Shown piece by piece: positions 2,761 to 53,425 of a DNA stretch of 64,000 bases (the first letter of the stretch is position 1; every line of letters starts with the position of its first letter). This DNA is from Cyanidioschyzon merolae. Its lineage: Eukaryota. Location of the stretch: NCBI GenBank assembly GCA_000091205.1, contig AP006487.2; one strand, given 5' to 3'. The position numbers and the translations under genes are program-made. The notes under the pieces were generated by a model. It did no database searches. It saw nothing but the letters and a program-made list of their open reading frames with translations, and had not been told where the DNA came from.

Positions 2761-4789
2761 AGCTACTTTGTGGAATCCTTGGAAAATTAGTATTATCGAC
2801 TGTGTGGGATCCCGAGAATGAGGATCCCTCACTGCTGCTTGAAACGAGGTCATGCGGCGGCACGAAACCGCCAGTGGTCAAGAGCTTGGATAAGCGTTGC
2901 GCGCTGCGTAGACGCCTCCGCACGAGCCACGACGCTCCTAGCCGCACCAGAGCGATGACGAGGACGCCTTGCATCGGTAATGAATAGTTCTGCTGCAGTT
3001 ACATCTTGCCGTGTACAGAGACTCAGCGGTTACGTCACTTGCGCTGGAGAGCACTGCTGGCGCTCAGATACTCGCGTTTTAGTCTTAATTATCCCGCAGC
3101 GTTTTTTGCTAATCCCACGTCAACACGAGAGAGAACGAACTCGAACTCGCTAACTCGGACGAACACACGAATGTTTGCGTTTTCCGAATGTCATGAATAC
3201 TAGCCTTAGAGGGTTTTTGTGCGACTGCGTCCTTTTCTTCTCTCTCATCTCCGGCTCTCAGTACGTCGCCCTCACCTATCTCCCCAGTTCCCTTGCCAGC
3301 AGTCGAAGGATACTGGAGAGAGCATTCATGTCCCGATTTCGCAGCTTCCGGTTGCTGTCGACACGTTTCGTGCGCATACGATTGTTGCGATGAATTCCTC
3401 GCTTACCTTTTTCATCTTGTTTGCGTACGCTTTCGGTGCGCATTTCGCACTTGCATCAACTTGCTCTGGGAAGGTTCCCGTAAATGTCCAGGACATATCC
3501 TTTTTCACGTGCCGCCATGTGGGGCGCGAACACTCGCTTCGTGGCCGTTTAAGTGCTCTTGATTGGAACTGAAGTCTTGCGTGGATGGCGTCTGCCGTTT
3601 TCGGACTCGGCACAGTAGCCTGTGATCGCACGCCTCAGCGGGGCGATTCACGAGGCGAGTACGCTGTCCGCTGCATGCGCTGGCGCATCTTGTTCCATTC
3701 GGCAGAGGATTTGTGGTACGTAATGTTGTGTATGATGAAACAAGCAGCGGCGGGTAAATCCAGACCGGAGAACCAGTCGTGTGGTATCGATTTGCATGCG
3801 CTCCTTTTGTACAGCTCGGTGACGCACCCGCCAATGACTTCGATCACAGCCATGACACAAGCCCGAGTCGTTGACCGTTTTCTATGCAAACACAAGAGAC
3901 GCTTGCTTCTCGGCGCATGTCCCATGAAAGGCGTCATTCTGCTGCGGAATCCGCTTCCGTCCATGAACTAACACAAAGGAGGATTTTTCTTTCAAACGAA
4001 ATCTATTTTTTGAGGTGACGATTTCAGTTAAATTTTGTGATGCGCTTTTAACAAAGTAGTCGAAGGGCGACATCAAGTCACGTTTTCCATGTTCCACGCA
4101 GCGATTAGCATCCCTGCGCCCACGAGTTGCCTCGAAACAAAGAGATTGACAACATGATTCATGGATGATTTCAGCACGTTACTTGACCGGTAAAATCAAA
4201 ATTGGAGGCTTGCAAGTATAGAATGAATAACAATATTGCTTATTTTACAAACCTTGGCTTGACGGCAACGAGAATCGTCCTGATTCCGATGACGTTACGA
4301 ATTCCAGCGGCAGACTCGAATGAGCCATGCTGCAGTGGAGACTAGGAGTCCTCACTCTACTTGAGGATTTGAAATCTCTTATTGATGCGCTTCGAATGCC
4401 AAACCAGTACATGTAAAAAAGTTCGGAAAAAGTCGCAAGGCAGAAACAGAACGTTCCGCCCAGCACTCCGTGCTAGTCAGACACCGGTTTATCGAGCAAC
4501 TGTACATCCCGCGCCACGGCGAGGCGCGCGTTTCGCTGCACAGAGCGAAATCTGCGATGCGCGGCAGATCGCTGCGGCGGTTATACTCGCGCGCTAATAC
4601 TCGCACTCTTGTACTCGCCCAAGTACACTTCTGCAGTCATACTTGCGTCGTTACAGTTGTGCAGCGTCATTTGCTGCAAAACGGAGGCGATCCTTATTCG
4701 ACGGACTCTGTTGAAGCAACCGCTTGAGGTGTTATTTATTTACTGCAAAACGCGAACACTGTAAGGCTCCAATACTACGAAAGCCATAA

Positions 4790-6283
4790 ATGTCGCGACA
4801 GGTTCAGGACACAATGGAGGGGTTCTTCAAGAGCTGCAAACGTCAACGAATAAACTTGACGTCCACGAAGACAAAGCAGGGCCTTGCGGCGACCGAGTGT
4901 CTCAAGGAGAAACAATGCTCGAGCCTGGGAGCTACACCAGAAGGAACCGGAGCCGGCCGTGCGCCTCAGCGCTCGCCCAGAAGAACGCAACAGGCCGGGG
5001 CTCAGGCTGGAGCGAGTGCACCAGACGCACCACCAGCGGGACGCGCCGTCGAATTCCAGCGCGTTTGCCGAGCACTCGAGACGCTGCTCAGGGACGGCAC
5101 CTCAGAGTCTCTTTTCATCGCAGGGCTCCCCGGCAGTGGCAAGACCTACGTTGTCGAGCGAGCCCTCGCAGCTTTCAGAACACGTCTCCAAGGCGTGCAT
5201 ATCAATCTCGCGGGGATTCTGCGAGATGATATGCTGATCGAGACGCTCGCCAATGCCCTAGCTCCTCCGAAGACAACGGGAGCGAGGTTGCGTGCCAACG
5301 GTGCTGGTCAGGCGCGTCGCCAGGCGACTCGTTCGCTTGGCGCGAACCCGCAAGCGATCGATACGCTGCTTCAAAGCCGCCTCCAGGGCAATCGTCGACC
5401 ACTCTGCCTGGTGTTGGACGAGATCGATCTCTGGTTGACACAGCGTGGACGACGTTCCCTCGCGTATTCGCTTCTAACGATACCAACGCGTTTCCCGGAG
5501 CATTGCTGCATCATCGGCATCGCGAATGCACTGGATTTCACAGAGCGAGTGCTGCCGGCGCTGCGCTGTGCTACAAGCATCGAGCCGAACGTGCTCATTT
5601 TCACGCCTTATACAGCTGAAGATCTGATCGCCATTGCCGTGGAGCGGTTGCTAGAGCAAGGATGCGCTCAAACGGCATCCCGGGACGGCATCGAGGCGTC
5701 TGCACTGGAGCTGGCAGCTCGTAAAGTCGCAGCCGCACATCAGGGCGATGTTCGAACCATGCTGAGCGCCTGTCGAAGCATCGTGGACAAGGCAACAGAG
5801 ACCAGGCCTAGCGCGCATTCAGCGGTCGCCGCGCTGCAGGCAGTGGTCACTCAACTGTACAGCAAGCCTAATGCCAATTCCGTCCTGGAGACGATTCGAT
5901 CCCTGCCGACGCAGCAGCAGATGATTCTGTGGGTGCTCGCCCAGAACGCACACAGCACCGCCATTACACTGCGCGATTTGTGCGCAGAGGCGCGGCGTCT
6001 CTTCACCAAGCTTCGTTTGGATCCCGTGGATCTCTCGACGCTGCATGAGATTTGCAGTATCTCTCTGCGACATCACGGTATGGTAACGTATGCAGCGGCG
6101 TGTAAGCGTGGAGCGCAATACGGCCTCTCTTTGCCAAGCGCCAAGGTGCGGCTGCAGATCGCCCCTGCTGATGTTTACGATGCCCTCAGAGCGACTCCAA
6201 GTTTGCACGCGCTGCTCGGTTCCGCAGCGGTTCCGAGTTACGAAAGCGCCCATGGGCACGTTGAATGTGCACGCACTGCTTGA
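4790..6283 (+). CDS. Cdc6/Orc1-family AAA+ ATPase (replication initiator)
   Basis: Walker A GLPGSGKT and Walker B LVLDEIDLW are present. IGIANALDFTER resembles IGIANTxDL of Cdc6/Orc1. The N-terminus has SPRR CDK-like sites and basic NLS-like stretches. There is no BAH domain, so it is more Cdc6/Cdc18-like than Orc1. Confidence 0.75.
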   Translation: MSRQVQDTMEGFFKSCKRQRINLTSTKTKQGLAATECLKEKQCSSLGATPEGTGAGRAPQRSPRRTQQAGAQAGASAPDAPPAGRAVEFQRVCRALETLLRDGTSESLFIAGLPGSGKTYVVERALAAFRTRLQGVHINLAGILRDDMLIETLANALAPPKTTGARLRANGAGQARRQATRSLGANPQAIDTLLQSRLQGNRRPLCLVLDEIDLWLTQRGRRSLAYSLLTIPTRFPEHCCIIGIANALDFTERVLPALRCATSIEPNVLIFTPYTAEDLIAIAVERLLEQGCAQTASRDGIEASALELAARKVAAAHQGDVRTMLSACRSIVDKATETRPSAHSAVAALQAVVTQLYSKPNANSVLETIRSLPTQQQMILWVLAQNAHSTAITLRDLCAEARRLFTKLRLDPVDLSTLHEICSISLRHHGMVTYAAACKRGAQYGLSLPSAKVRLQIAPADVYDALRATPSLHALLGSAAVPSYESAHGHVECARTA

Positions 6284-6351: not shown

Positions 6352-8658
6352 CTAGCTTCGGGCTGCCCGCCGCTGACCCTCGACACGTATCGTTTGCTCG
6401 AGACGCCTTGCCGCCACAGCCAGCTCCGCCGGTGCATAGGTGCGCAAGCGAAGCAGATCAAGATAGAAGCACGTCGAGTGTTGGACGTAGCGATCACGCA
6501 CGCGGGCTGTTCGGGCCTCAGTAGCCTCGAATGCTGGATCGAACTTCCACGAGGCGTCCAGCGCACGCGTATCCCAACCGACGGCCTCCGCGGTGCTTCG
6601 CAGGGTTCCGGTGCTCGTGTCGACCGGAAACAGCGCGCTTGCGTTTGGTGCTTGATCGGGCACCTGGGCAGTAGATTCCTTTCGTGCGGGTGGCGTTATC
6701 GCTAACGCCGTGCCCTGCGTGCCAGTGACCTTCAGCTCGGCCAAGTAAAGATAACGGTCGCGCCAGCACTGTATGACGCGAAGCGCTCTCCGGGCATCCT
6801 CGAAGAGGCCCGCCAGATCCTTGATGCGCTCGTGGAATGCACGCCAAACCATTCCTTCGCGAAGCTCGTTTTCCGGATCGGGGAAAACACATGCACCGTT
6901 GATCGGCGATGATATCGTGTCTAGGTCTACGAATGCCTCGCCTGCAATGCTTCTTTCATTGCAAAGGAGAAACGCCAAGTCACCGAGCGCATCTCCGCGA
7001 CGTACCTCTGCAGCTGGGCTACCGGCTTGCAGTCGGCAACAGCTGCAACGACAGTAGCGATCGGAGCCGCATCGTCGCGATTGCTCGCCGGAAAGCGCTT
7101 CCTCGAGACGCTGCAGATGCTCCAGCGTCTCAGCAACTCGAGTTGCTTCCCGGGCAAGTCGATTGGCGCAGCGTACGTGCCTGTCGACACGCACCTGCAA
7201 GGTTCGTAACAGTTTCTCTTGTGTCTGAAGCAAAATCTCCAAGTCAGGAAGACCCCCCTCCAGCGCAGTCAAGTTGCCGCTTTCGCCGAATGCAGTGCAT
7301 TCCCATCGAGAGCGCTGCATTGGATGCTGTATCAAGCCTGTGATCCATTCATCGATCCGAAGGCGATATTTCCAGTGCCAGAAATGCAGCGCGGCAACCA
7401 AGGCGTGCGGCCTCAACGACGCAAACCACGCCCTCCAGGACGGACCTGAAGGCATCCGGCAGCTTGGTGCGTCGGGCAGCGGGTGCCGTCCTGCAACCGC
7501 AACCACCGGCGGAGCTTCCTCAAAAGTGGGCGCTCCCGCTGCACGCATCCAGCGGAGGTCCTCCGGACACCTGAGAAATGCATCCACCAGGGGACTCTGT
7601 CGCAGAACCGGATGGCTCAGGACGCGGCCCAGGAAGCGCTCCAGGTCGCGCGCGACCTGCGCTGCAATTCCTCTGCTGAACATCGCTCGGAGTTCCAGCC
7701 AAAGCGGAATCGACGGTAACACAGGAATGATACAGGCTGGATGGACTCGCTCAAGCGACGACCTGAGCTCCAAAAAGTCTGCGGCACATCGCCACACGGC
7801 GTATTGGTTTCCTTGCGGGTCCCGCGGTGCCGTATGTTCGCGAACTTGACTCGCCGTGTCCGGCACTTCGAGGTGCCTCTGTCCTCGCCATGCAGCATCG
7901 GTTGGGTCGTTCTCCAGTGAACCTCGACTCGTTTTGGATTTGCCGGGCAGGATCACCGACACCAGGAAGCCCCCTTTCCTGTTCTGACCGAGAAATCCGA
8001 AACATCGCAGGAGGCGCACTGAAAGACGGCGATCGTTCGGTTGCCTTGGCTCTCGTAAAGTGCTTCGATGAACGACCCGCACTGAAGGCGAGCCACAACC
8101 CCAGGATGTCGCTGTTCGCTCCAAGTGTAATCGCTCACCTGCGAAAAAATGCTGCTTCTCGGACATGGCGCTCTGCGTGATCATGGGAGGCTCCATTGCG
8201 CAGCAGTTTGCAACACTGCTGCTGCTGCTGCTGCTGCTAAGCGTCCGGGCGTGAGCTCCTGCAGCGCTCTGCGTTTGCCTTTCGTGACACATACCTGCGA
8301 CCCGCTTCGGATACTCTTCCGCAAACGTGCCTGTGGTTGCTCGTTCGTCAGCATATGTGCTGCGTTGTTCGCCGCTTGCCTCCAGAAGCAGTGCGCAGCA
8401 ACTCGAAGCGCGCGCTCTTGCACCGGCCCGCGAACTGTCAAACCGTTCCCTGTTGCTTCCAGCGGCATCCGCGACGGACTCTCTGGCCACTATCCAAAGC
8501 GTGTGCTTGCGCTTCTCAGAGTCAGGCTTGGACCGGCCGGTGTCCGCTCCAGATTCCCAAGAAGGCGCCGCGGCGAGTTTCGAGAAGCCACAAACGCGAT
8601 GCGCTTCTGAGCGCCATCCAAACTGCATCGAGGACGCCCGAGCGAAAGTCCACAGCAA
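6352..8658 (-). CDS. PX (phox-homology) domain protein, sorting-nexin-like
   Basis: The central segment reads YAVWRCAADFLELRSSLERVHPACIIPVLPSIPLWLE...ARDLERFLGRVLSHPVLRQSPLVDAFL. It fits the PX landmarks R(Y/F)xDFxxL, PxLP and RxxLExFLxxVxxHPxLxxSxxLxxFL. The C-terminal half is helical and charged, possibly BAR-like. Confidence 0.6.
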   Translation of the reverse strand: MLWTFARASSMQFGWRSEAHRVCGFSKLAAAPSWESGADTGRSKPDSEKRKHTLWIVARESVADAAGSNRERFDSSRAGARARASSCCALLLEASGEQRSTYADERATTGTFAEEYPKRVAGMCHERQTQSAAGAHARTLSSSSSSSSVANCCAMEPPMITQSAMSEKQHFFAGERLHLERTATSWGCGSPSVRVVHRSTLREPRQPNDRRLSVRLLRCFGFLGQNRKGGFLVSVILPGKSKTSRGSLENDPTDAAWRGQRHLEVPDTASQVREHTAPRDPQGNQYAVWRCAADFLELRSSLERVHPACIIPVLPSIPLWLELRAMFSRGIAAQVARDLERFLGRVLSHPVLRQSPLVDAFLRCPEDLRWMRAAGAPTFEEAPPVVAVAGRHPLPDAPSCRMPSGPSWRAWFASLRPHALVAALHFWHWKYRLRIDEWITGLIQHPMQRSRWECTAFGESGNLTALEGGLPDLEILLQTQEKLLRTLQVRVDRHVRCANRLAREATRVAETLEHLQRLEEALSGEQSRRCGSDRYCRCSCCRLQAGSPAAEVRRGDALGDLAFLLCNERSIAGEAFVDLDTISSPINGACVFPDPENELREGMVWRAFHERIKDLAGLFEDARRALRVIQCWRDRYLYLAELKVTGTQGTALAITPPARKESTAQVPDQAPNASALFPVDTSTGTLRSTAEAVGWDTRALDASWKFDPAFEATEARTARVRDRYVQHSTCFYLDLLRLRTYAPAELAVAARRLEQTIRVEGQRRAARS

Positions 8659-12355: not shown

Positions 12356-13132
12356 TGGAAATGCGGTTGCGGAGCTGGCTCTGTCGATGCCCGCTGCTAC
12401 GTGTGTGTGTGAACGCGCGCGCCCAGCCCCCGGACCAGGCAGGCCGTATACGCGTTCGGTGTCCATCGCAAAGTGCACCGGCACCGGCACCGGCGAGTCT
12501 CCCGCAGAGTCCCACAGCGAACGAGCACCAAGCAAGCGTCGCCCCGTACTCTGGTTTGGTCTCAAGTCCATGTGCGGGGCGCTGGTACAACGAGCGCTCT
12601 TCGTTCGAGGGCGCAAATATGCGCTTGCGCGCAGTCGCCTCGACCGTGGTTCGATACTGCCCACGGTGTCTGTTCGCGAGCGCTGCGAATACCCTGAAAG
12701 CGCCTGATACGCGATAGGTGGCGCCATGCGGGCTTCATCGGCGCCGCACAGGCGCTGCGTGCGCGTACCCGAATGGCGAGCGTGCAGGGCGGCAGCGGTA
12801 CGCTGCTGGCGCACGATAATCGCTCAAGGCGCTCCGCTACAGCGCGCGTGCAGTGACGTGTCCTGTGCGTGTCTTTGGTATGCGACACGCATTGGCAGTG
12901 CGCGTGCATGCGCGATGCGTGTCGCTGTCCTCGTTGGTAGAGCTGGTGGAGTCTCCTTTTGGTGTCTGCTGGGGATTTCTCCATTCAAGGGGGTCTTGCA
13001 TTCACTTGGGGCGAATATCGAGTTCATAGCGTCTATGACCCGAACCGGCGCCGCCTAGTGAGCGATGTGATTGCGGAATCGCCATGTGCTGGACGTGCGT
13101 GGTTGCGGCTCGGCGAGCAGCTGGGGGCATCC

Positions 13133-15190
13133 CTAGAACTCTGCAGAGTCCAAGCAGTCGTCCGCGTCAGACGCCATGAAGTCTGTATCGCACGCTGCGT
13201 GTGCGTCCAGGTCATTGACGCGGTGCATCCAACGATCGAGCGCGGTTTGTGCTGGCACGTGGGATTTCGGCGATGAGGTTACTTTTCCTCTGGATTCGCG
13301 GCTTTCAGTATTCTTCGTCTTCGATGCGGCACGGCGGCGCTGTAATTGCTCTAGATAAGCATCGTGTGTGGATGGTTTCCCTTTTTTAGACCAGGCCGCC
13401 TTGGGGAGTCGGCCGGCTCGGGATGGACGAGGCGAATCATCTGAGGCGCTCTGGGGAGCCTCCAGTGCTCGCGGTCTATTTTCGTCCTGCACAAAAATGC
13501 TGTCTCCTGCATAGAGCATGGTTGCCGCATCGGAAACGAGCCGGAGGGCGGCTCGCTGACGTTTGGTGCTCATTTCTCCTCGGCCGCTGCTAGTTTGGCG
13601 CAAAGTTGCCAAAGCTTTCTCGAGCGCAGGTGCGGCGGGTACCGCGTTGGCCGCATCCGATTTAGAAGCACGTTTGCGTGTTGGTTTGGTGGGCATGGGA
13701 TGCATCTCAAAGCGGACTCGTTTCGAGTGCCGCTTGTGGGTGTGCAGTGCCGTCGATGCTGTAGCTGCATCCTTGGATTCAGATTTCAGCTCACCGACTG
13801 TGCTGACGCTCTCCGTGCATGTGGTGTTGATAGATTCTTCTCCAGAGGCGCCCGGCGACAAAGGTTCTGCGGACTTGCGTTGAATCTTTTGCCGTCCGCG
13901 TTGTTCTGTGCCTGTCGTTGTTTCGCTCGCGCTTGGGGCTTGCTCCGCTCCCCTTCTGGGACGACGCTTATTCTGAGAAGCGCCTGAAGTTCGGCTCGCT
14001 GATGGTGAACTGGATGCAGGCATCATCTTGATCTTTCCTGATGCTGGATCTAAACTGCTTTGGAAGTGCTCGCGTGTTGCCGGGGTCATGCGATCATGCA
14101 GTGGCATCATCACAGACGCAGCCGCAGCGTCACCAGAGAATGGATCCTCTGTAGCGCGTTGCCCGCACTGGGAAGCGCTTGCTCTATTCGGGTCCCGCGA
14201 CGACGTTTTCCGCTTGTTGGCGGATGCAGCATGAGCCACTCGATGCGAGGAGGCAACCATGTTCTCGAATTCGCTGCGGGTGCCTTTTTCGCAGCTTTTG
14301 CTGTTGCTCGCTTCCGCGCTGTTTGAACTATCAACGGGTTGTTTGCGCGGACGCCCCCTTTTCCGTCTTGTCGGCGAGCGGAGCGGTAGGGTCGCAACCT
14401 CAGACCCAACTATAGCTGAGGCAGTTTGCAGAGACCCTGTTCGGCTTCTCGTTCCGCTCGCACCCAGGATGAGGTCGGGGTGGTGGAAACGGACGCGAAC
14501 AAGCTGCTCTAACAGTCGCCGCGCTTCGCGAGAGATCGATTGCGGTATCTTGCGCATCTGCTCTGCGGTATTGCTGGCCACGGGCCAGTCCGACGGGTTC
14601 TGCTTCGTGGCTGGGGTCTCGCCGGTGAGCTCCTCATCCACTACGAGCAGTGGGCCGCGCTGGTGCGAACGCGTTCGCGTCGCATGCGGCCTCGCTGCCC
14701 GCCGGCTTTCCAAGTCGACTTGATTCCGTACCTCCCGCCAGGAACGATAGCCTTCGATCAAAATCTCACGCCAGTTTTTCGGAAACGCTGTCCCTTTCCC
14801 ATCATTTACGCTTTGAAAGGCGCGGACGGTCGCAACAGGCCACCCGGCAGTGACCATGTGCGCCGCACGCATCCGGCCGCAGAGACGGTACCGAGAACCA
14901 GACTCGGTCTCGATGACTGTATATTCGCGCCCGTCTGTCTGCACGTCCACTACAGCCGAAGTTTGCCACAGCAACGATGCATCCAGAGGCGGTGCAGGAA
15001 CACCAGCGGCGTTCGATTCCGCCGCCGCTTCCCGCGTGCCCCACACTGTAAAATATGTGTTTTGTTTCTTTGCTGTCGTCGAGACATTCTCTCGATCTTC
15101 ATCTGAAATTCTATCGTCTTCAGCAAGGACAGGCTCAAGGAACCAGTCGTAGATCGGGGGAAACTCCATCACCACACGTCTACCAGGCAA
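13133..15190 (-). CDS. SANTA-domain protein; candidate KNL2/Mis18BP1-like CenH3-loading factor
   Basis: The N-terminus reads IYDWFLEPV...YFTVWGTRE...LWQTSAVVDVQTDGREYTVIETESGSRYRLCGRM...AFPKNW. It matches SANTA landmarks: LxDW, GxR, W-(S/T)S-x-I/V, TxSGSxYxLxG and (G)FPxxW. The remainder is S/K/R-rich and disordered. It includes RPSRAGRLPKAAW, which resembles the CENPC-k pattern RxSxRxxxxPxxxW. Confidence 0.45.
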   Translation of the reverse strand: MPGRRVVMEFPPIYDWFLEPVLAEDDRISDEDRENVSTTAKKQNTYFTVWGTREAAAESNAAGVPAPPLDASLLWQTSAVVDVQTDGREYTVIETESGSRYRLCGRMRAAHMVTAGWPVATVRAFQSVNDGKGTAFPKNWREILIEGYRSWREVRNQVDLESRRAARPHATRTRSHQRGPLLVVDEELTGETPATKQNPSDWPVASNTAEQMRKIPQSISREARRLLEQLVRVRFHHPDLILGASGTRSRTGSLQTASAIVGSEVATLPLRSPTRRKRGRPRKQPVDSSNSAEASNSKSCEKGTRSEFENMVASSHRVAHAASANKRKTSSRDPNRASASQCGQRATEDPFSGDAAAASVMMPLHDRMTPATREHFQSSLDPASGKIKMMPASSSPSASRTSGASQNKRRPRRGAEQAPSASETTTGTEQRGRQKIQRKSAEPLSPGASGEESINTTCTESVSTVGELKSESKDAATASTALHTHKRHSKRVRFEMHPMPTKPTRKRASKSDAANAVPAAPALEKALATLRQTSSGRGEMSTKRQRAALRLVSDAATMLYAGDSIFVQDENRPRALEAPQSASDDSPRPSRAGRLPKAAWSKKGKPSTHDAYLEQLQRRRAASKTKNTESRESRGKVTSSPKSHVPAQTALDRWMHRVNDLDAHAACDTDFMASDADDCLDSAEF

Positions 15191-26079: not shown

Positions 26080-28620
26080 TTACTTGCGGTACGCCATGCG
26101 CCGCCAGAGCGCAGCTGCGTCGCTCGGAACATATGGTGCTCCAGGGCGTCGTCCGTGCCGCCCTAGTGTCGACGGGGCGTACATTGCCTGCCGAGCCGCC
26201 TGAATACCTTCGTGAATGGTCTGCACTAAACCCGAGGCCAACAGTATGATTGCAGCGTTCAACACAATGGTTTCGCGGAGCAATACCAGGTGCTCTGAAG
26301 ATAAACTGCTGGTCTCTGCTCCGACAGCGTTGTCGTCGATACCCGTATTCGTGAGTACCTCCTCGAGGAGTCGTGCATTCTCCACGGCATTGGCACCAAT
26401 CACAGCAGCTAAATCGCCCTTGCTGTACATCTGGTAGCGATGCGGTTGAAGAGGTATCTCGGCGACCTGGGCGATCTCCTCGCCGTCTGCATTGGGGCCG
26501 CGGTAGCAAACCTCGCGCACAGAATTCTGTCCCCAGGGTAGAAGACAGCCCAGATGCTGCTCTCCCGTTGGAGTGTCCTCGTTTGATGCCTCTGGCACCA
26601 GACAAGTGAAGAGCCAGGCTCTTACTGGACGGAAGAACGCGACTGCGTCCGTCAGCGCCTCCAGTTCTGCAGTTCCACTGGGAGCATGGAGACCCGGCGC
26701 AGTCACCAAACGATCAAGGTCGTAGGCATTCAAGAGCGGAGCCACTAAATCTCCCAAAAGCGGTGCTGGCGATGTTGCCACATCTTCCGCGGTAGCCGTT
26801 TCATTCAGTAGGAGTCGAATATCGCGCTTCGCGAGACCTATCGGTGATCGATAAAGCGCTATTCGCAATCGATCAAAAGTTGCACAGGACTCGGCTAGAG
26901 TCGGATAGGGGTTCAGCCCAACAGCAAGCAGGAAAGGGGCATAAGTCGTGCTCAACGTGCTCCGCCAGTCGTCGATGATACAGACGCGGGCACCTGCTGA
27001 TGTGGCAACGACGGCAGCGCCCAACATAATATGGGGAATCATGGCGTTGGAGAAGAGCAGCCCTACTATGGTGGATCTGGAAAGCGGCCCTGAAGGCTGT
27101 GGTGTCCGTGGATGAGCACTTATGTAGGCGGAAAGCTTTGGCAAGTGCGGAAGCAGCAACTGCGCGAGCGCTGCTCGTGCAGAGCCGTGCAAGACGCCAT
27201 CTGCAGCCATCGCGAGAATGCACAGCTTCCGGGCAACTGCGATGGACTCTGCTCGCGACAGGGCCGGAAGCAAGTGCTTCTGTTCATTGGACGATGCCGG
27301 GGCATACGCGCCTGACTTTCCTGCATACTGATATTGTTCGTCAGCGCTCAGCAGTGTAAACAGGCAGCGGGTATCTTCAATACTCAACGGCAACTGGCGA
27401 ATGATAGCCTCGTAGAGATCGGAGACGTCTGCGAACCAGCGGCGCGGCACGGGAGCCGTCTTGTTCGCTATTCGGTCGCTGTGCTGCCTCTGCAACAGTG
27501 CTTCCAGGTGGAAGCGCAGGCGAGCCCACACCATACCCAGAGGCGATGTCAGCGTTCGCGCAGCTCGCTGGTACGCCGGCTTCTTCGCTGGTGGACGCAA
27601 CGGCTGCGGAAACGCTCGCCATCGCTCTGCAAGCTCCTCTCGACCAAGGAAGACGCTGTCTAGTCGCTGTTGTAACTTCCAGAAAAGTCCAAGTATGATG
27701 AGGGCGATGGCACTGATCCAGAATGCCGGTACCGGGAACCGTCCGCCCGGACGGATTGTTTCCAACCCGGGGAGTCGCAGCGGCTCAACGGTAACCATAC
27801 GCCGCTCTCCTTGCCAGGCTCGTCCAGCATGCTCCATTCGTGCCTCATCTGCACGGTCGAGGAAACGTAAAGAGTATCGAACAAGATGACGGGATCTCAT
27901 CCACAGGTGTCTGCATGCGTAGGGCGTTACCCGACGTGCATCAGCAAGGATTTGCGTTGATGACTCGCGACCCCGTCCAAAGCGGTTGCGGGTGTATGCA
28001 TGTTGGCCAGGAAGACGCGTAGGTGTGTTGCTGATCCAGCGCACCAATGGAGCAGAAAACTGAAGTACCGGGAAACCCCATCGAGCCCGCAACGCCCGCG
28101 CCATCCCCAAGGAGCGACCTGTCTCCACATCCGAACGCTTCGGGAAACCATGACACCTATCCAGACTAGTAGACAGAAGCGTTGACGTACGCGCACCCGT
28201 CTCGCTTCTGGAGAGCATTGCACAGTGTTGGCACATGGAACAGGCGTTCGACCGGGGCCTCACGCCGGGCGGCATAACAGGATGCCTGCGGCTCGCAACG
28301 ATACCACTATCCGTTTCGGTGGCTGCTCCTGTATCCAAAAAGGCGCTCCAGGCGACAGGACGGTTCTTGGTCCATCGGTTTGGTATCAAGCTTCCAGTTG
28401 TCGGCCTCACGGTAGTGATTTCCTCTTGTTGACGCTTTGATACTTGCTGCTGCACCATGAAAGCTCGCTGCCGACAGCCACACAATGCAGAGGCCTCCTC
28501 AGCGCAGACAAACAATACCCTCCGACAGAAAGCAAGGTCGTTACTAGCACTACGAATGGTAAACAGTAGTAGTTGTTGTTGTTGCTCTCTTGACTGGGTT
28601 TGAAAAAGCTTTTGCGTCAC
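26080..28620 (-). CDS. membrane protein with C-terminal TrpD-like (glycosyltransferase family 3 fold) domain; catalytic motifs appear degenerate
   Basis: The C-terminal ~330 aa aligns in outline with anthranilate phosphoribosyltransferase. LLGDLVAPLLNAYDLDRLV is comparable to NLLGPLTNPA...LGV. KGDLAAVIGANAVENARLLEEVLTNTG is comparable to GGxAxENAxxLxxVLxG. LRETIVLNAAIILLASGLVQTIHEGIQAARQAM is comparable to RDAVLLNAAAALxVAGxAxSLxEGVxLAxEAI. The KHGNR and GTGGD motifs are not recognisable. The N-terminal half has a TM helix FPVPAFWISAIALIILGLFW. Confidence 0.4.
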   Translation of the reverse strand: MTQKLFQTQSREQQQQLLLFTIRSASNDLAFCRRVLFVCAEEASALCGCRQRAFMVQQQVSKRQQEEITTVRPTTGSLIPNRWTKNRPVAWSAFLDTGAATETDSGIVASRRHPVMPPGVRPRSNACSMCQHCAMLSRSETGARTSTLLSTSLDRCHGFPKRSDVETGRSLGMARALRARWGFPVLQFSAPLVRWISNTPTRLPGQHAYTRNRFGRGRESSTQILADARRVTPYACRHLWMRSRHLVRYSLRFLDRADEARMEHAGRAWQGERRMVTVEPLRLPGLETIRPGGRFPVPAFWISAIALIILGLFWKLQQRLDSVFLGREELAERWRAFPQPLRPPAKKPAYQRAARTLTSPLGMVWARLRFHLEALLQRQHSDRIANKTAPVPRRWFADVSDLYEAIIRQLPLSIEDTRCLFTLLSADEQYQYAGKSGAYAPASSNEQKHLLPALSRAESIAVARKLCILAMAADGVLHGSARAALAQLLLPHLPKLSAYISAHPRTPQPSGPLSRSTIVGLLFSNAMIPHIMLGAAVVATSAGARVCIIDDWRSTLSTTYAPFLLAVGLNPYPTLAESCATFDRLRIALYRSPIGLAKRDIRLLLNETATAEDVATSPAPLLGDLVAPLLNAYDLDRLVTAPGLHAPSGTAELEALTDAVAFFRPVRAWLFTCLVPEASNEDTPTGEQHLGCLLPWGQNSVREVCYRGPNADGEEIAQVAEIPLQPHRYQMYSKGDLAAVIGANAVENARLLEEVLTNTGIDDNAVGAETSSLSSEHLVLLRETIVLNAAIILLASGLVQTIHEGIQAARQAMYAPSTLGRHGRRPGAPYVPSDAAALWRRMAYRK

Positions 28621-28639: not shown

Positions 28640-29259
28640 TCTCGAAGCGACGTGCTCTAGAGAAAGCCCTGCAGGAGCCACACGACTCGAAAAAAGAGCA
28701 AGTCGTTACGATGAAGCGTTACCTGCGTAACGACTAGAAACAGCTGCTTCTGAGCGACACGACTCGAATAAAGGGCTAGTCGTTACGATGAAGCGTTACC
28801 TGCGTAACGACTAGAAACAGCTGCTTCTGAGCGACACGACTCGAATAAAGGGCTAGTCGTTACGATGAAGCGTTACCTGCGTAACGACTAGAAACAGCTG
28901 CTTCTGAGCGACACGACTCGAATAAAGAGCAAGTCGTTACGATGAAGCGTTACCTGCGTAACGACTAGAAACAGCTGCTTCTGAGCGACACGACTCGAAT
29001 AAAGGGCTAGTCGTTACGATGAAGCGTTACCTGTGTAACGACTAGAAACAGCTGCTTCTGAGCGACACGACTCGAATAAAGGGCTAGTCGTTACGATGAA
29101 GCGTTACCTGTGTAACGACTAGAAACAGCTGCTTCTGAGCGACACGACTCGAATAAAGGGCTAGTCGTTACGATGAAGCGTTACCTGCGTAACGACTAGA
29201 AACAGCTGCTTCTGAGCGACACGACTCGAATAAAGGGCTAGTCGTTACGAAGAATCGCC
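28640..29259. repeat. 77-bp tandem repeat array, about 7.5 copies, each unit containing a perfect 12-bp-stem palindrome
   Basis: Units start at 28681, 28758, 28835, 28912, 28989, 29066, 29143 and 29220, a period of exactly 77 bp. The unit reads cacgactcgaataaagggCTAGTCGTTACGatgaagcgttacctgCGTAACGACTAGaaacagctgcttctgagcga. Units 1 and 4 share gagcaag in place of ggctag. Units 5 and 6 share the variant ctgTgtaacg. This indicates higher-order structure. The array lies between the divergent starts of the 26080-28620(-) and ALG13(+) genes. Confidence 0.95.
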
Positions 29260-29457
29260 TCCCAAAAGGAGCTTCCCCGGGAACGCTTTACCGTGTAAGG
29301 CTTCGAACGGCTGAGAACGAGCCCAGGCGATACGCGTTACCGCCACCACTTGCATGTGTGCTCCGCGTGGCATCTCCAGTCGATGCTTCTGCACTGCTGT
29401 TCCAAAGTCGTTACACATGACGGTTTTTTCTGGGGGTACTTGTTGCCTTCCTAACAT

Positions 29458-29955
29458 ATGGGTAAACGGGTGTTCGTAACAGTGGGTACAACGCGCTTCT
29501 CGGGACTCGTTCAGGCGCTAGAGAACGAGCAGGTTCTCCGGTCGTTGCGCAGGGCTTGGGACTGCGACACACTGGTGGTCCAGCACGGATCAGGTCCAGC
29601 ACCAGCGAGAGCTTGCATCGAGCGTCATGGTATGACCCTGGAAAGTTTTCCGTACTCGGATTCATTACGGGATGAACAGGAGAGAGCGGACCTCATCATT
29701 TCGCACGCTGGTGCGGGCTCGATCCTCGAAGCACTCGAACATGCTAAACCGTTGGTTGTCGTCGTCAACGAAAGTTTAATGGATAACCACCAATGGGAAC
29801 TTGCCCGTGCACTTGCAGAACGAAAGGCGCTCGTCGCTACCACGTGCGCTGAGCTAGGGCAGGCGTTGGAGCAGGCTCGTCGTCACCGGCAGCAGAGACC
29901 GTTGCCACCGGCTTGTCGTGGGGTGCTCACGCGAGTTCTCTTCGAAGAGAGCTGA
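29458..29955 (+). CDS. ALG13: UDP-GlcNAc transferase subunit ALG13 (GT28 C-terminal domain)
   Basis: The N-terminus MGKRVFVTVGTTRF is the ALG13 signature VFVTVGTT. It also has ISHAGAGSILEAL, and KPLVVVVNESLMDNHQWELARAL, which is comparable to ALG13 LMNNHQxELA. The size of 165 aa is typical. Confidence 0.85.
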   Translation: MGKRVFVTVGTTRFSGLVQALENEQVLRSLRRAWDCDTLVVQHGSGPAPARACIERHGMTLESFPYSDSLRDEQERADLIISHAGAGSILEALEHAKPLVVVVNESLMDNHQWELARALAERKALVATTCAELGQALEQARRHRQQRPLPPACRGVLTRVLFEES

Positions 29956-31785: not shown

Positions 31786-34581
31786 TCAGTCACCCACGAG
31801 ATCCTTAATCCAGGCGTCCCAGCAGCCCGGTGGTGCCGCTGCCGTTGTTGTTGTTGTTGTTGTAGTCGTTGTCGTTGTCGTGGATCCCGGAAATGCCGAG
31901 GGCGCTACCGACCCTGCATCCAGGGCAGGCATCGAGTGGTGGCATTGTGAATCGCCTCCATGCCGTTTCTCGTGTGCTCCGTCGCTGGGCTCGGGACCAT
32001 TGAGCAGCGGCGATACACTCGATGGTGTCGAGTTCTCTGTCTGCAGAGACGGTGTGCCGGTGCATGTGCCGGTGCCGGTCTCGCTGGGGCCTCCTCCAAA
32101 CTCCGGTCCTTCGCTAGATGATGCAGCGCGGCTAGCGCACGCGTTCTCAGCAACCGCTGCTGGTACGACTCCAGTCCCAAGGATGCTTCCTGGCGTGATT
32201 GTGGCCGCAGCCGAAGCCGCAGCAGCTGCGTGGGGCGAAAGCGGCGATATGCGCGCATAGCTCCATGGGCCCCAGTCTGCTTGAGGCTGCTCCAAGAACG
32301 TTCCTCTCATTGGGGCCAGGTAAAACGAGTGCCCGAACGGGTCTAGGTGCTGATCAGATTCATCATTGCTGGGAGTACCAAGAACAGAGCAACCAGCTGC
32401 ACCGGTAGGCGCGACACACAGCGAGCTGCTGAATCCTCCAGGGTGCTGCTCGCAGACCTCTCCGCCTGGAATCTCCAGCGGCGGGAGCAGCCTCTGGCGA
32501 GCGCGTACACCCCGCAAGGCATCTTGCGTTGCTATCGCTCGAGACGGTGACCTTGTCGCTGCGAACATGAGCGGTGTCGGTGTCGGTATCGGTGTCGGCG
32601 GTACTGCTGTAGCGCACTGCTCCATTGGGGTAGAGGGCGCTCGGCTCAAAGCTCGTGTCGTTTGTGGTGCGCATGTCGATGCTACCGACAACGAAGTCGA
32701 TGCTGATGTTGACGACGACGACGACGACGACGATGGCGGCGGCGGCGGCGGTACATGCAAGGCATCCGTTGTCCTCGTTGCCGACAGGAAGCGTAGCAGC
32801 TCTGCAACGACCTCGTTGTGGCCATGCTGCGCAGCCAGGTGAACCGCAGTCTGTCCGTTCATGTTCGCTGCGTGCGCATTGACGGCGGGCAGTACACCAG
32901 CGCCCCGAATCCAAGCTGCAACCTGCAGCAAAAGGCGCACGCTTTCCGTCTTACCGTACTTGGCTGCGATCATAAGCGGCGTGTTCCCATCCTGTGCATC
33001 GGGCATGTCAAGCACATCGGCGGCATCCCAGAGCGGTACGCCCTGTGCCACCGGTGGTAAACCCAAGCACGCGCGCACGTCTGTGACCGTGATGAGTTCG
33101 CGCAGCACTTCGACATGGCCATAGCGTGCAGCGAAAGTCGCCGCCGTCCACCCTCGAGTGGAAGTTCTGCGCCTAGGATCGACACCGTCCCACAACGAGA
33201 GCAAATGGCGTACACATTTCGCGTGCCCGTGCTGCGCTGCGAGCATGAGCGCGGTGGCGCCCTCACCACATGGTGCATCGAGCACTGCCTGAAGCCACCG
33301 CTTTGCTGTGATAGTGACTGTCCCATTGGAGTCTGTGCCTGTCGTAAGGAGTGCAGATACCCTATGTTTCGCGAATTCGACCAGGAGCGCAACCACAGCC
33401 TCTTGACCGTGCTTCGCCGCGACGTGAATCGGCGTCATCCGCTTCCAATCAGCGGCAACGAGGTCCGCTTCGATTCGGACGAGCTCTTCGCCACCGTTCT
33501 TCAGCGCCGATTCGAGAATGGTCTGCACAACCTGAATATGGCCAAAGCGGCATGCGTAGTGCAGCGGAGTTGAGTTCTTCTTCCGAGACGGCGACACTGG
33601 GCCTTGAATGGCGGTCAGGGACGAGTAATTCGTGGTCGCCGAAGTTGGCGTGCTGATCGTGGACAACGGTGACGCCAGAGGGCATGTGCCTGCGCCCGCC
33701 GTTGCCAGCGGGCTTGGTTGCACTGCGCACACCAACCCTGGCGCCAGCGCTTGCGCAGCGGCAGGCGCGCACTTCACATACTGGAGCCCAGCGGAGACGC
33801 ACGCAGTGGTGCCGCTTTCGCTGCCGGTGTGCTCGCCTCGGAACGTGAACGCTGGGTCAGTTCGCTCATCGATGGAGCATAGAGGCGGCGTTATCTCGGC
33901 GGGCGCAGTTGCTCCACAGCGACTCTGTCTGAGCCCGGCGATATGCCCCGCGAACGTCTGCTCGTTCCGTGTACTGACGGCAGCGGCGCTTGCAAACGCG
34001 GGCGCATTTGGGTTCGGTGCTCCCGTTGCCTTCGCCGACGCTCCCTGGATGGCTGCATTCGCGTACGGAGTATGAACGTCCGCAGGGATTCCCGATACCG
34101 TTGCCGACGCCGGCGGTAGGCAGTTCGTCTCGAAAGCGCGGTTTCGGAGTGAACTTGCTTGAAACGCCTCTGCGACCCGAGAGGCACGCAGGCCGCCGAC
34201 CCGAGCACATCCAGCCGAACGCTCAGCGCCCGCTCCCGGCAATCTACGAGCCACGCTGGGCAAGGGCTTGCGTTCTGCTTGGGACCTATGTATGGCATCT
34301 TTGTGAAATCTCTGCTCCTCGTTTGAAGCTAGCGATTGCTCTGACCCGAGAGCATTCCGGACCGAGAAGTGACCATTGATATAGCTGCCAGTGCTGCTGG
34401 GTATACGCTCCGTGCTTTGCGTTCCCATCCGAGGCTCGCCCGATGGTCGCCGTTCCAGACGCTCTGACGATACGGGCTTTGCGCCCAGCACACCCGGAGT
34501 TCCAGCTCCGTGCTCCATTGTGCAATCCAATGTTCCCAGATGCAATCTATATGCTAGCAACGAAGAAGTAGTAGGCTTCAA
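31786..34581 (-). CDS. ankyrin-repeat protein with poly-Thr/poly-Ser/poly-Asp low-complexity tracts
   Basis: There are multiple 33-aa ANK repeats: TPLHYACRFGHIQVVQTIL, TPIHVAAKHGQEAVVALLV, TALMLAAQHGHAKCVRHLL, TPLMIAAKYGKTESVRLLL and TAVHLAAQHGHNEVVAELL. TTTTTTTTTTTTT and SSSSSSSSS tracts are encoded by the (GTT)n/(GAC)n microsatellites at about 31844-31888 and 32711-32751. Confidence 0.8.
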   Translation of the reverse strand: MKPTTSSLLAYRLHLGTLDCTMEHGAGTPGVLGAKPVSSERLERRPSGEPRMGTQSTERIPSSTGSYINGHFSVRNALGSEQSLASNEEQRFHKDAIHRSQAERKPLPSVARRLPGAGAERSAGCARVGGLRASRVAEAFQASSLRNRAFETNCLPPASATVSGIPADVHTPYANAAIQGASAKATGAPNPNAPAFASAAAVSTRNEQTFAGHIAGLRQSRCGATAPAEITPPLCSIDERTDPAFTFRGEHTGSESGTTACVSAGLQYVKCAPAAAQALAPGLVCAVQPSPLATAGAGTCPLASPLSTISTPTSATTNYSSLTAIQGPVSPSRKKNSTPLHYACRFGHIQVVQTILESALKNGGEELVRIEADLVAADWKRMTPIHVAAKHGQEAVVALLVEFAKHRVSALLTTGTDSNGTVTITAKRWLQAVLDAPCGEGATALMLAAQHGHAKCVRHLLSLWDGVDPRRRTSTRGWTAATFAARYGHVEVLRELITVTDVRACLGLPPVAQGVPLWDAADVLDMPDAQDGNTPLMIAAKYGKTESVRLLLQVAAWIRGAGVLPAVNAHAANMNGQTAVHLAAQHGHNEVVAELLRFLSATRTTDALHVPPPPPPSSSSSSSSTSASTSLSVASTCAPQTTRALSRAPSTPMEQCATAVPPTPIPTPTPLMFAATRSPSRAIATQDALRGVRARQRLLPPLEIPGGEVCEQHPGGFSSSLCVAPTGAAGCSVLGTPSNDESDQHLDPFGHSFYLAPMRGTFLEQPQADWGPWSYARISPLSPHAAAAASAAATITPGSILGTGVVPAAVAENACASRAASSSEGPEFGGGPSETGTGTCTGTPSLQTENSTPSSVSPLLNGPEPSDGAHEKRHGGDSQCHHSMPALDAGSVAPSAFPGSTTTTTTTTTTTTTAAAPPGCWDAWIKDLVGD

Positions 34582-52513: not shown

Positions 52514-53425
52514 ATGGTGCGCGCAGCACGCGTTCGCTTACCAGCTACCAGGGGGCAGGCAGTGCCGCACGAGCACGCTTGCGGTGAGCAGGTCTCCATG
52601 GTGCGCGTGTTTGGGAACCCCGTCGGGGGTGCGCATCAATACCGTCAGACTCAGGCGTTGAACCGCGATGAGTCTCTTAGAGAACAGCTACAAAGAACGA
52701 CTGTGGCGGAGCAGGATGAAAACATTGAGCCAGAACCTGAACGCAGTTCACCGGACGAGGCACAGTCGCGCCTCAAGTCGCTGCTGGGGAGCGTCGCACG
52801 CTCCAGTTCACTGCTCGGTCGACGCGTGGCCGGTCCGCCCGGCTCGTCGTTATCGAATCTAGCGGAGACGAGGCTTCTCACGGAAGAAGCGGCAAACAGG
52901 CCTACTGGCGCGGGACGCAGCGAACGCGTCTCAGCCGGCAGAGCGGAGCCGTTGCCACCGGGACCCACCACCGCCACTACCAACGCTGATGCGAATACAG
53001 TTCAGCGAGGGCTATCTGTGGCGAGCGCGTTTCCACCTCGAGCACCGCTGCAAGCCGCCGGTTTCACTGTCGCGCGACGGACGACACGGTCTGGTGTACA
53101 ACGCAAGCACCGCTTCCGGCCCGGATCACGTGCTATCATGGAGATTCGCAAGTTCCAACGCTCCACGGAGTTGCTGCTCCGCCGTTTACCGTTCGCGCGC
53201 CTTGTACGAGAGATTTGTGAGCGTTTGTTTGGAAGCTCCGCGTTCCGCTGGCAGGCAAGTGCGCTCGAGGCATTGCAAACCGCAGCAGAGGATTATCTCA
53301 TACACCTCTTCGAAGACAGCAATCTTTGTGCAATCCACGCTCGCCGAGTGACCATCATGCCGCGAGATATCGCCCTTGCACGAAGAATTCGTGGCTATCA
53401 TAGCGATCCGCACGGGTACCTCTGA
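52514..53425 (+). CDS. CENH3: divergent histone H3 variant; candidate centromeric H3 (CenH3/CENP-A)
   Basis: The C-terminal histone fold reads [95 protein letters not shown]. Canonical H3 reads [39 protein letters not shown]...[30 protein letters not shown]. The roughly 200-aa N-terminus is not H3-like (no ARTKQTARK). Loop1 and alpha2 are divergent. The true start Met is probably internal. Confidence 0.6.

Follow-up and report, generated by a model that had tools for sequence, protein, structure and literature searches.

Eukaryotic minisatellites (VNTRs) with mapped variant units include human MS32, and those placed at promoters include the INS VNTR and MAOA-uVNTR. Such arrays occupy a single locus, are non-coding, run head-to-tail in units of 10-100 bp beside promoters, and differ between individuals in copy number and in the interspersion of variant units while their flanks remain nearly identical. 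In Saccharomyces, tandem repeats in promoters, mostly short AT-rich units with measured effects, reportedly tune expression through nucleosome occupancy (Vinces et al. 2009, Science). The rare fragile sites FRA16B (33-bp unit) and FRA10B (~42-bp unit) are AT-rich hairpin-forming repeats with kilobase expansions and cytological consequences, and CRISPR arrays consist of regularly spaced short palindromic repeats.

The array described here shares features with each of these systems. It lies in a 64,000-nucleotide stretch of DNA, hereafter the window, from the 528,682-bp chromosome of Cyanidioschyzon merolae 10D that carries the locus; two proteins encoded in the window, ALG13 and a PEP carboxylase, are exact matches to 10D entries (BAM79316.1 / XP_005535602.1 and BAM79319.1, respectively). 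As in MS32, INS and MAOA-uVNTR, the repeat is a non-coding, head-to-tail array at one locus beside promoters, with copy number and variant order that differ between near-identical flanks. Unlike classic minisatellites, its unit is longer than most, is not G-rich, and contains an internal 12-nt inverted repeat; its host also differs, being a red alga of 16.5 Mb in which repetitive DNA is very scarce. Like the Saccharomyces repeats, it is variable and lies in the compact intergenic promoter DNA of a single-celled eukaryote, where a change in copy number might in principle affect nucleosome placement, spacing, or the number of sites, but a 77-bp unit of 49% GC is unlike the short AT-rich units of yeast. 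Its units can fold back like those of FRA16B and FRA10B, a property thought to promote slippage and expansion, whereas the array is at most 580 bp long and balanced in composition. Finally, the resemblance to CRISPR ends at the regular spacing of short palindromic elements, as there are no unique spacers, no cas genes nearby, and the host genome is eukaryotic and nuclear. Overall, the array has the properties of a minisatellite or VNTR and lacks those of a CRISPR array, a MITE, a higher-order repeat, a centromeric or telomeric satellite, or a structured RNA. We favor, with a probability of roughly three in four, the reading that it is a young, locus- and lineage-specific minisatellite, neutral or nearly so, in the ~1-kb spacer between a TrpD-like gene and ALG13.

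Tandem Repeats Finder reported a single tandem array of period 77 and 7.5 copies (97% matches, 0% indels, score 1097), and an independent repeat finder gave a unit start-to-start distance of 77 across its whole length (Table 1). Both results bear out an earlier note on this DNA, which had described about 7.5 head-to-tail copies at an exact 77-bp period, except that the array had been started at 28640 and the repeat begins at 28675. No other tandem repeat in the window has a period above 18, and the array's score is more than ten times that of the next best. The consensus unit is GAGCGACACGACTCGAATAAAGGGCTAGTCGTTACGATGAAGCGTTACCTGCGTAACGACTAGAAACAGCTGCTTCT, no open reading frame of 80 or more codons lies inside the array, and Rfam, applied at gathering thresholds to the entire window, gave no match. 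The earlier note was also correct that the array is not CRISPR-like, since the sequence between the inverted repeats is itself repeated at 97% identity. By contrast, the recurrence of variant positions with a 3-unit phase, which had been taken to imply higher-order duplication, did not survive re-examination: identity at lag 231 (97.99%, 7 mismatches) is barely above that at the monomer lag of 77 (97.81%, 11 mismatches), units 5 and 6, which have a variant in common, are adjacent rather than three apart, and environmental alleles do not have a 3-unit pattern. A higher-order 231-bp repeat was rejected on these grounds. Derivation of the unit from adjoining sequence was likewise considered and rejected, as the 77 nt 5' and 3' of the array are only ~26% and ~35% identical to the unit (estimated from repeat-finder identities) and local alignments to the flanks are marginal (at best 5/300 and 9/300 shuffles). 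Just beyond the 3' boundary, all environmental alleles printed also have a short palindrome, CTTCCCCGGGAAC (core TTCCCCGGGAA), which in the window lies at 29270-29282.

Table 1. Features of the array, its inverted repeats, and its neighbors, in window coordinates.
Feature	Position	Strand	Details
TrpD-like neighbor	26080..28458	-	From first in-frame ATG; Pfam below cut-off
Solitary GTCGTTAC, unique left flank	28537..28544	+	79 bp upstream of TrpD-like ATG
77-bp minisatellite	28675..29254	.	7 full units + ~0.5 terminal partial unit; TRF, spacing
Full-unit starts	28675, 28752, 28829, 28906, 28983, 29060, 29137		
Terminal partial unit	29214..29254	.	Left arm CTAGTCGTTACG kept at 29238-29249; right arm absent
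Perfect interrupted inverted repeat, unit 2 (representative)	28776..28814	.	Pattern search
Other perfect inverted-repeat copies	28853-28891; 29161-29199		
One-mismatch inverted-repeat copies	28699-28737; 28930-28968; 29007-29045; 29084-29122		
Unit-like segment GCTGTTCCAAAGTCGTTACACA, unique right flank	29395..29417	+	Exact 9-mer AGTCGTTAC at 29406-29414; ~45 bp upstream of ALG13 ATG
ALG13 (UDP-GlcNAc transferase subunit)	29458..29955	+	Pfam Glyco_tran_28_C, E = 2.2e-24

The placement of the array between two divergent gene starts was confirmed, with the TrpD-like gene on the minus strand and ALG13 on the plus strand. The ALG13 assignment, already made in the earlier note, stands on its Pfam match, and UniRef gives the protein the same name. 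The start of the minus-strand gene had been put at 28620, a GTG codon produced by bacterial-style ORF calling, and moves to the first in-frame ATG at 28458, as a result of which the ATG-to-ATG spacer measures 999 bp. The array makes up 58% of this spacer and is separated by 217 bp from the start codon of the TrpD-like gene and by 204 bp from that of ALG13. The TrpD-like label itself derives from a sub-threshold match of the C-terminus to Glycos_transf_3 (E = 5.7e-4, 20 bits vs a cut-off of 27), in a Cyanidiophyceae-specific protein with one hydrophobic segment. Elsewhere in the window, 52514-53425 (+) encodes a 303-aa protein with a C-terminal histone H3-type fold (Pfam Histone, E = 4.5e-37) and an N-terminal extension of ~190 aa, an architecture typical of a centromeric H3 variant.

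To follow the locus in natural populations, we retrieved records for ALG13 and for the representative of its 90%-identity cluster, which led to 20 environmental contigs (JGI, ENA) with the locus, and added further contigs from a metagenome scan for the inverted-repeat pattern. The 2-kb flanks in 24 such contigs are 99.0-99.8% identical to 10D with 0-1 indel, which indicates that the contigs are conspecific with 10D or nearly so. A '10D-like' C. merolae is present in JGI short-read metagenomes from Yellowstone (PMC11662350); the sample numbers here could not be matched to that study. Across the window and the 24 contigs we counted 69 full units, all at a spacing of 77, which fall into 12 distinct variants with 10 variable columns. 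The left and right junctions are identical in every contig that includes the boundary, and register print-outs gave the same 3' boundary of the terminal partial unit in every environmental allele that includes it.

As assembled, the alleles differ in both copy number and unit order. Assembled copy numbers are 1.5, 2.5, 3.5, 4.5, and 7.5, of which the short ones (especially 1.5) are lower bounds and may in some cases be collapses: the environmental contigs look like products of short-read assembly, and a number of them (L014, L016-L019, L023, L026, L028) stop within the array, as is usual for short-read assemblers at repeats of this type. Some short unit maps could be derived from longer ones by unit skipping, for example L011 from L020. 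The 10D map reads u0 u8 u8 u4 u9 u9 u8, a second 7-unit allele (L020/L025, 7.5 copies) reads u1 u6 u2 u7 u6 u8 u3, and other allele families begin with u10 or u2 or hold the divergent unit u11. Order is a more robust character than copy number; collapse could not produce the difference in unit order between the two 7-unit alleles. Varying copies and unit order between flanks at least 99% identical make the array a VNTR, and mosaic unit maps like these are what slippage or unequal exchange leaves behind. Of the three origins that the earlier note had offered (a minisatellite, an array of transcription-factor sites, or the end of a mobile element), the first is thus upheld for a single-locus, head-to-tail repeat. 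The same contigs speak to the concern that the reference array was produced by misassembly, to which tandem repeats are prone: the array recurs with identical boundaries in over 20 independent environmental assemblies, one of which (L020/L025) likewise has 7.5 copies, and the 10D reference is a finished Sanger assembly. We give the idea practically no credence.

The age of the array is bracketed by comparison with Cyanidiococcus. A homology search with the TrpD-like protein returned only three clusters, namely C. merolae, Cyanidiococcus yangmingshanensis (55% identity), and a related metagenome protein (53%). Gene order around the locus, with ALG13 and the TrpD-like gene divergent, is kept in a contig of C. 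yangmingshanensis (L021) and in a related metagenome contig (L022), where the orthologous spacers measure 366 bp and 328 bp, respectively; subtracting the array from the C. merolae spacer leaves ~420 bp, near the outgroup length. Neither outgroup spacer contains a minisatellite, the sole tandem repeat in them being a (GAAC)10 microsatellite at 7676-7716 of L021, and searching them with the 77-bp unit returned chance-level matches only (<=12 nt, E >= 0.7). The GTCGTTAC inverted repeat is also absent from both. With the same gene pair present and the unit missing, the array probably arose later than the Cyanidioschyzon/Cyanidiococcus split but earlier than the divergence of the sampled C. merolae alleles. 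Both outgroup spacers contain an E2F-like site TTTCCCGC (7784-7791 in L021 and 7790-7797 in L022), 150 bp and 118 bp upstream of ALG13, respectively, and none is found in the C. merolae array spacer.

Outside annotated conserved genes, the Cyanidiococcus-type contig L022 carries tandem repeats of 51 bp x 2.8 (6443-6583) and 90 bp x 2.9 (13027-13286), the latter with 100% identical copies. The presence of intergenic minisatellites in this contig suggests that such repeats are not unusual in these genomes, and young minisatellites seem to be recurrent in these compact genomes.

Within the sequence covered, about 64 kb of 10D plus the metagenomes, the array appears to be confined to this locus. 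There is no second copy of the unit in the 64-kb window, and of the 8 stretches recovered by scanning metagenomes with the inverted-repeat pattern, 5 are this locus, to which all C. merolae-like metagenome matches map. The same pattern had no match in the viral contigs scanned, and 596 Gb of prokaryotic genomes gave a single one, in a Pyrinomonadaceae genome and with a 6-nt spacer, where a rough calculation predicts ~0.9 by chance. The remaining three metagenome stretches, all from sample Ga0049107 (L024 2106-2156, L027 1505-1555, and L029 410-461), are a ~52-nt AT-rich perfect palindrome ACTAGTCGTTACATTATTACATATACAGTATATGTAATAATGTAACGACTAGT on three contigs with similar left flanks. They represent an unrelated, dispersed hairpin element of another organism whose 11-nt arms are alike by chance.

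These searches weigh on the proposal, also made in the earlier note, that the array is a mobile-element terminus or remnant, such as a MITE-like hairpin unit amplified in tandem after insertion. The inverted repeat does resemble short terminal inverted repeats, and an insertion would also account for the sister genus lacking the sequence. However, no second copy turned up in the window, metagenomes, viral contigs, or prokaryotic genomes, the three other metagenome matches share only their 11-mer arms with the unit, no target-site duplication surrounds the 39-bp hairpin, and no transposase lies nearby. A MITE or terminal inverted repeat transposon was rejected accordingly, and a mobile origin is extremely improbable. 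We also rejected a centromeric or telomeric satellite, as genes extend for more than 28 kb on both sides, GC never falls below 0.52 in any 2-kb bin, and the unit itself is 49% GC; C. merolae centromeres are AT-rich. A search of the C. merolae literature on tandem repeats and minisatellites, promoters and cis-elements, H3K27me3 at repeats, and nucleosome maps returned nothing on this array.

The consensus unit contains CTAGTCGTTACG-15 nt-CGTAACGACTAG, whose arms are true reverse complements, and a pattern search for CTAGTCGTTACG-N15-CGTAACGACTAG gave 7 matches at no more than 2 mismatches vs 0 in 100 shuffles. What had been called a palindrome does have 12-nt reverse-complement arms and is, strictly, an interrupted inverted repeat with a 15-nt spacer. 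Similarly, the 12-bp perfect stem ascribed to every unit holds for the consensus and for units 2, 3, and 7, but not for the other four: units 1 and 4 read CAAGTCGTTACG (CAAG...), with an A/A mismatch at stem pair 2, and units 5 and 6 read TGTAACGACTAG (TGTAACG...), with G/T at the innermost pair. The invariant stem core is 9 bp, AGTCGTTAC/GTAACGACT, and is constant in all 69 pooled units. In agreement with the hairpin anticipated from the sequence, the 45-nt hairpin segment has a computed folding energy of -11.3 kcal/mol as single-stranded DNA (z = -4.2), and variant hairpins are weaker (-9.2, -9.3, and -8.1 kcal/mol), the unit 1/4 and 5/6 types accounting for the -9.2 and -9.3 values.

Selection on the hairpin was assessed on the 12 distinct units. 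Of the 12 stem pairs, 9 are invariant, one alternates between G-C and G-T, and two are broken (by T26A and A34T), with no compensatory stem change. Variable columns are distributed evenly, with 3/24 in the arms vs 7/53 elsewhere (Fisher p = 1.0), and the imperfect T52 state is the commoner one in the pooled units (38 vs 31). Arms that vary as often as the other columns, together with the lack of compensation, give no sign of selection on the hairpin, and a young repeat evolving in concert would be expected to show just this uniformity across the array. These observations bear directly on a reading in which the hairpin is itself functional, either as cruciform or slipped DNA acting as a replication or recombination signal, or as a repeated RNA stem-loop in a 5' UTR or non-coding RNA. 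The thermodynamic reality of the stem favors such a role, as does the fact that the common C-to-T change at column 52 would keep a G-U pair in plus-strand RNA. With two of the three variable stem sites breaking pairs, no Rfam match, and no conservation outside the species, however, the array lacks the marks of a structured RNA or selected DNA hairpin, and the 15-nt spacer disfavors cruciform extrusion from duplex DNA. We consider a functional hairpin very improbable. Binding of a single dimeric factor across both arms, which the earlier note had raised, is unlikely, as arm centers 27 bp apart make a poor geometry.

The main rival reading is regulatory. Under this alternative, the array would be an amplified cis-regulatory block in which GTCGTTAC, or the longer CTAGTCGTTACG, binds a C. 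merolae transcription factor on the bidirectional promoter, so that the repeat would supply 15 extra sites in alternating orientation and its copy number would tune the expression of ALG13 and/or the TrpD-like gene, much like yeast promoter repeats. The case for it comes from motif positions. Outside the array, GTCGTTAC occurs only 4 times in 64 kb, and 2 of these copies are located in the unique part of the spacer, 419 bp in all (binomial P = 2.6e-4): that at 28537 is 79 bp from the TrpD-like ATG, and that at 29407 is 51 bp from the ALG13 ATG. The unit-like segment around this copy (29395-29417) aligns 19/22 to the minus strand of the unit, a score reached by 5/300 shuffles, and the 9-bp core is unchanged in 69/69 units. 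The only other intergenic GTCGTTAC in the window, at 4647-4654 (+), lies 143 bp upstream of a CDC6/ORC1-like AAA+ gene (4790-6283), and can be counted on the same side.

The solitary copies in both flanks suggest that the motif may mean more than neutral repetition; they could be decayed pieces of older repeats or single copies of a real cis-element multiplied by the array. Against a regulatory block, the flank copies may be no more than such decayed pieces, the core is no more invariant than the non-arm columns (Fisher p = 1), a constancy that concerted evolution explains equally well, the motif is absent from the orthologous Cyanidiococcus spacers, and assemblies with only 1.5 copies exist. 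No known factor could be matched to the motif either, a comparison by eye with MYB, bZIP/PAR, HSF, and CDC5 consensus sites yielding no convincing match. On balance, we regard an amplified regulatory block as unlikely. Its more specific form, in which the array would act as a natural 'tuning knob' that multiplies the candidate cis-element GTCGTTAC, with copy-number alleles in hot springs setting ALG13 and/or TrpD-like expression and possibly phasing nucleosomes (two units amount to 154 bp), is more doubtful still.

A neutral or nearly neutral minisatellite suggests the following history. A 77-bp piece of the spacer that already held the 12-nt inverted repeat was probably duplicated after the Cyanidioschyzon/Cyanidiococcus split, and the resulting array would then have expanded, contracted, and been reshuffled through replication slippage and/or unequal exchange between sister chromatids or homologues. 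Pairing of the arms is possible both inside a unit (15-nt loop) and between neighboring units (38-nt loop), so out-of-register fold-backs should favor misalignment, and single-stranded hairpins formed during replication probably promote out-of-register realignment. The hairpin would in this case be a passenger of the duplicated sequence rather than a selected structure. Short alleles in several assemblies suggest that a long array is probably not required for the expression of either neighbor, and at most the array may alter promoter spacing or add binding sites.

As one more minisatellite, ordinary in kind, the array carries little biological weight. Its value is practical: it could serve as a PCR-sized, hypervariable marker for C. 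merolae, a model alga with an otherwise almost repeat-free genome, in strain typing, in tracking hot-spring populations, and in scoring recombinants in crosses. Were copy number to affect both neighbors, the locus would provide a red-algal example of repeat-driven promoter variation like that of yeast. Length variation among the environmental contigs is also seen in a coding GTT/CGTTGT repeat encoding poly-Thr (31843-31881), inside an ankyrin-repeat ORF at 31786-34581 (-): this repeat measures 45, 48, or 51 nt between fixed anchors, and the ankyrin products are called at 907 to 912 aa across contigs.
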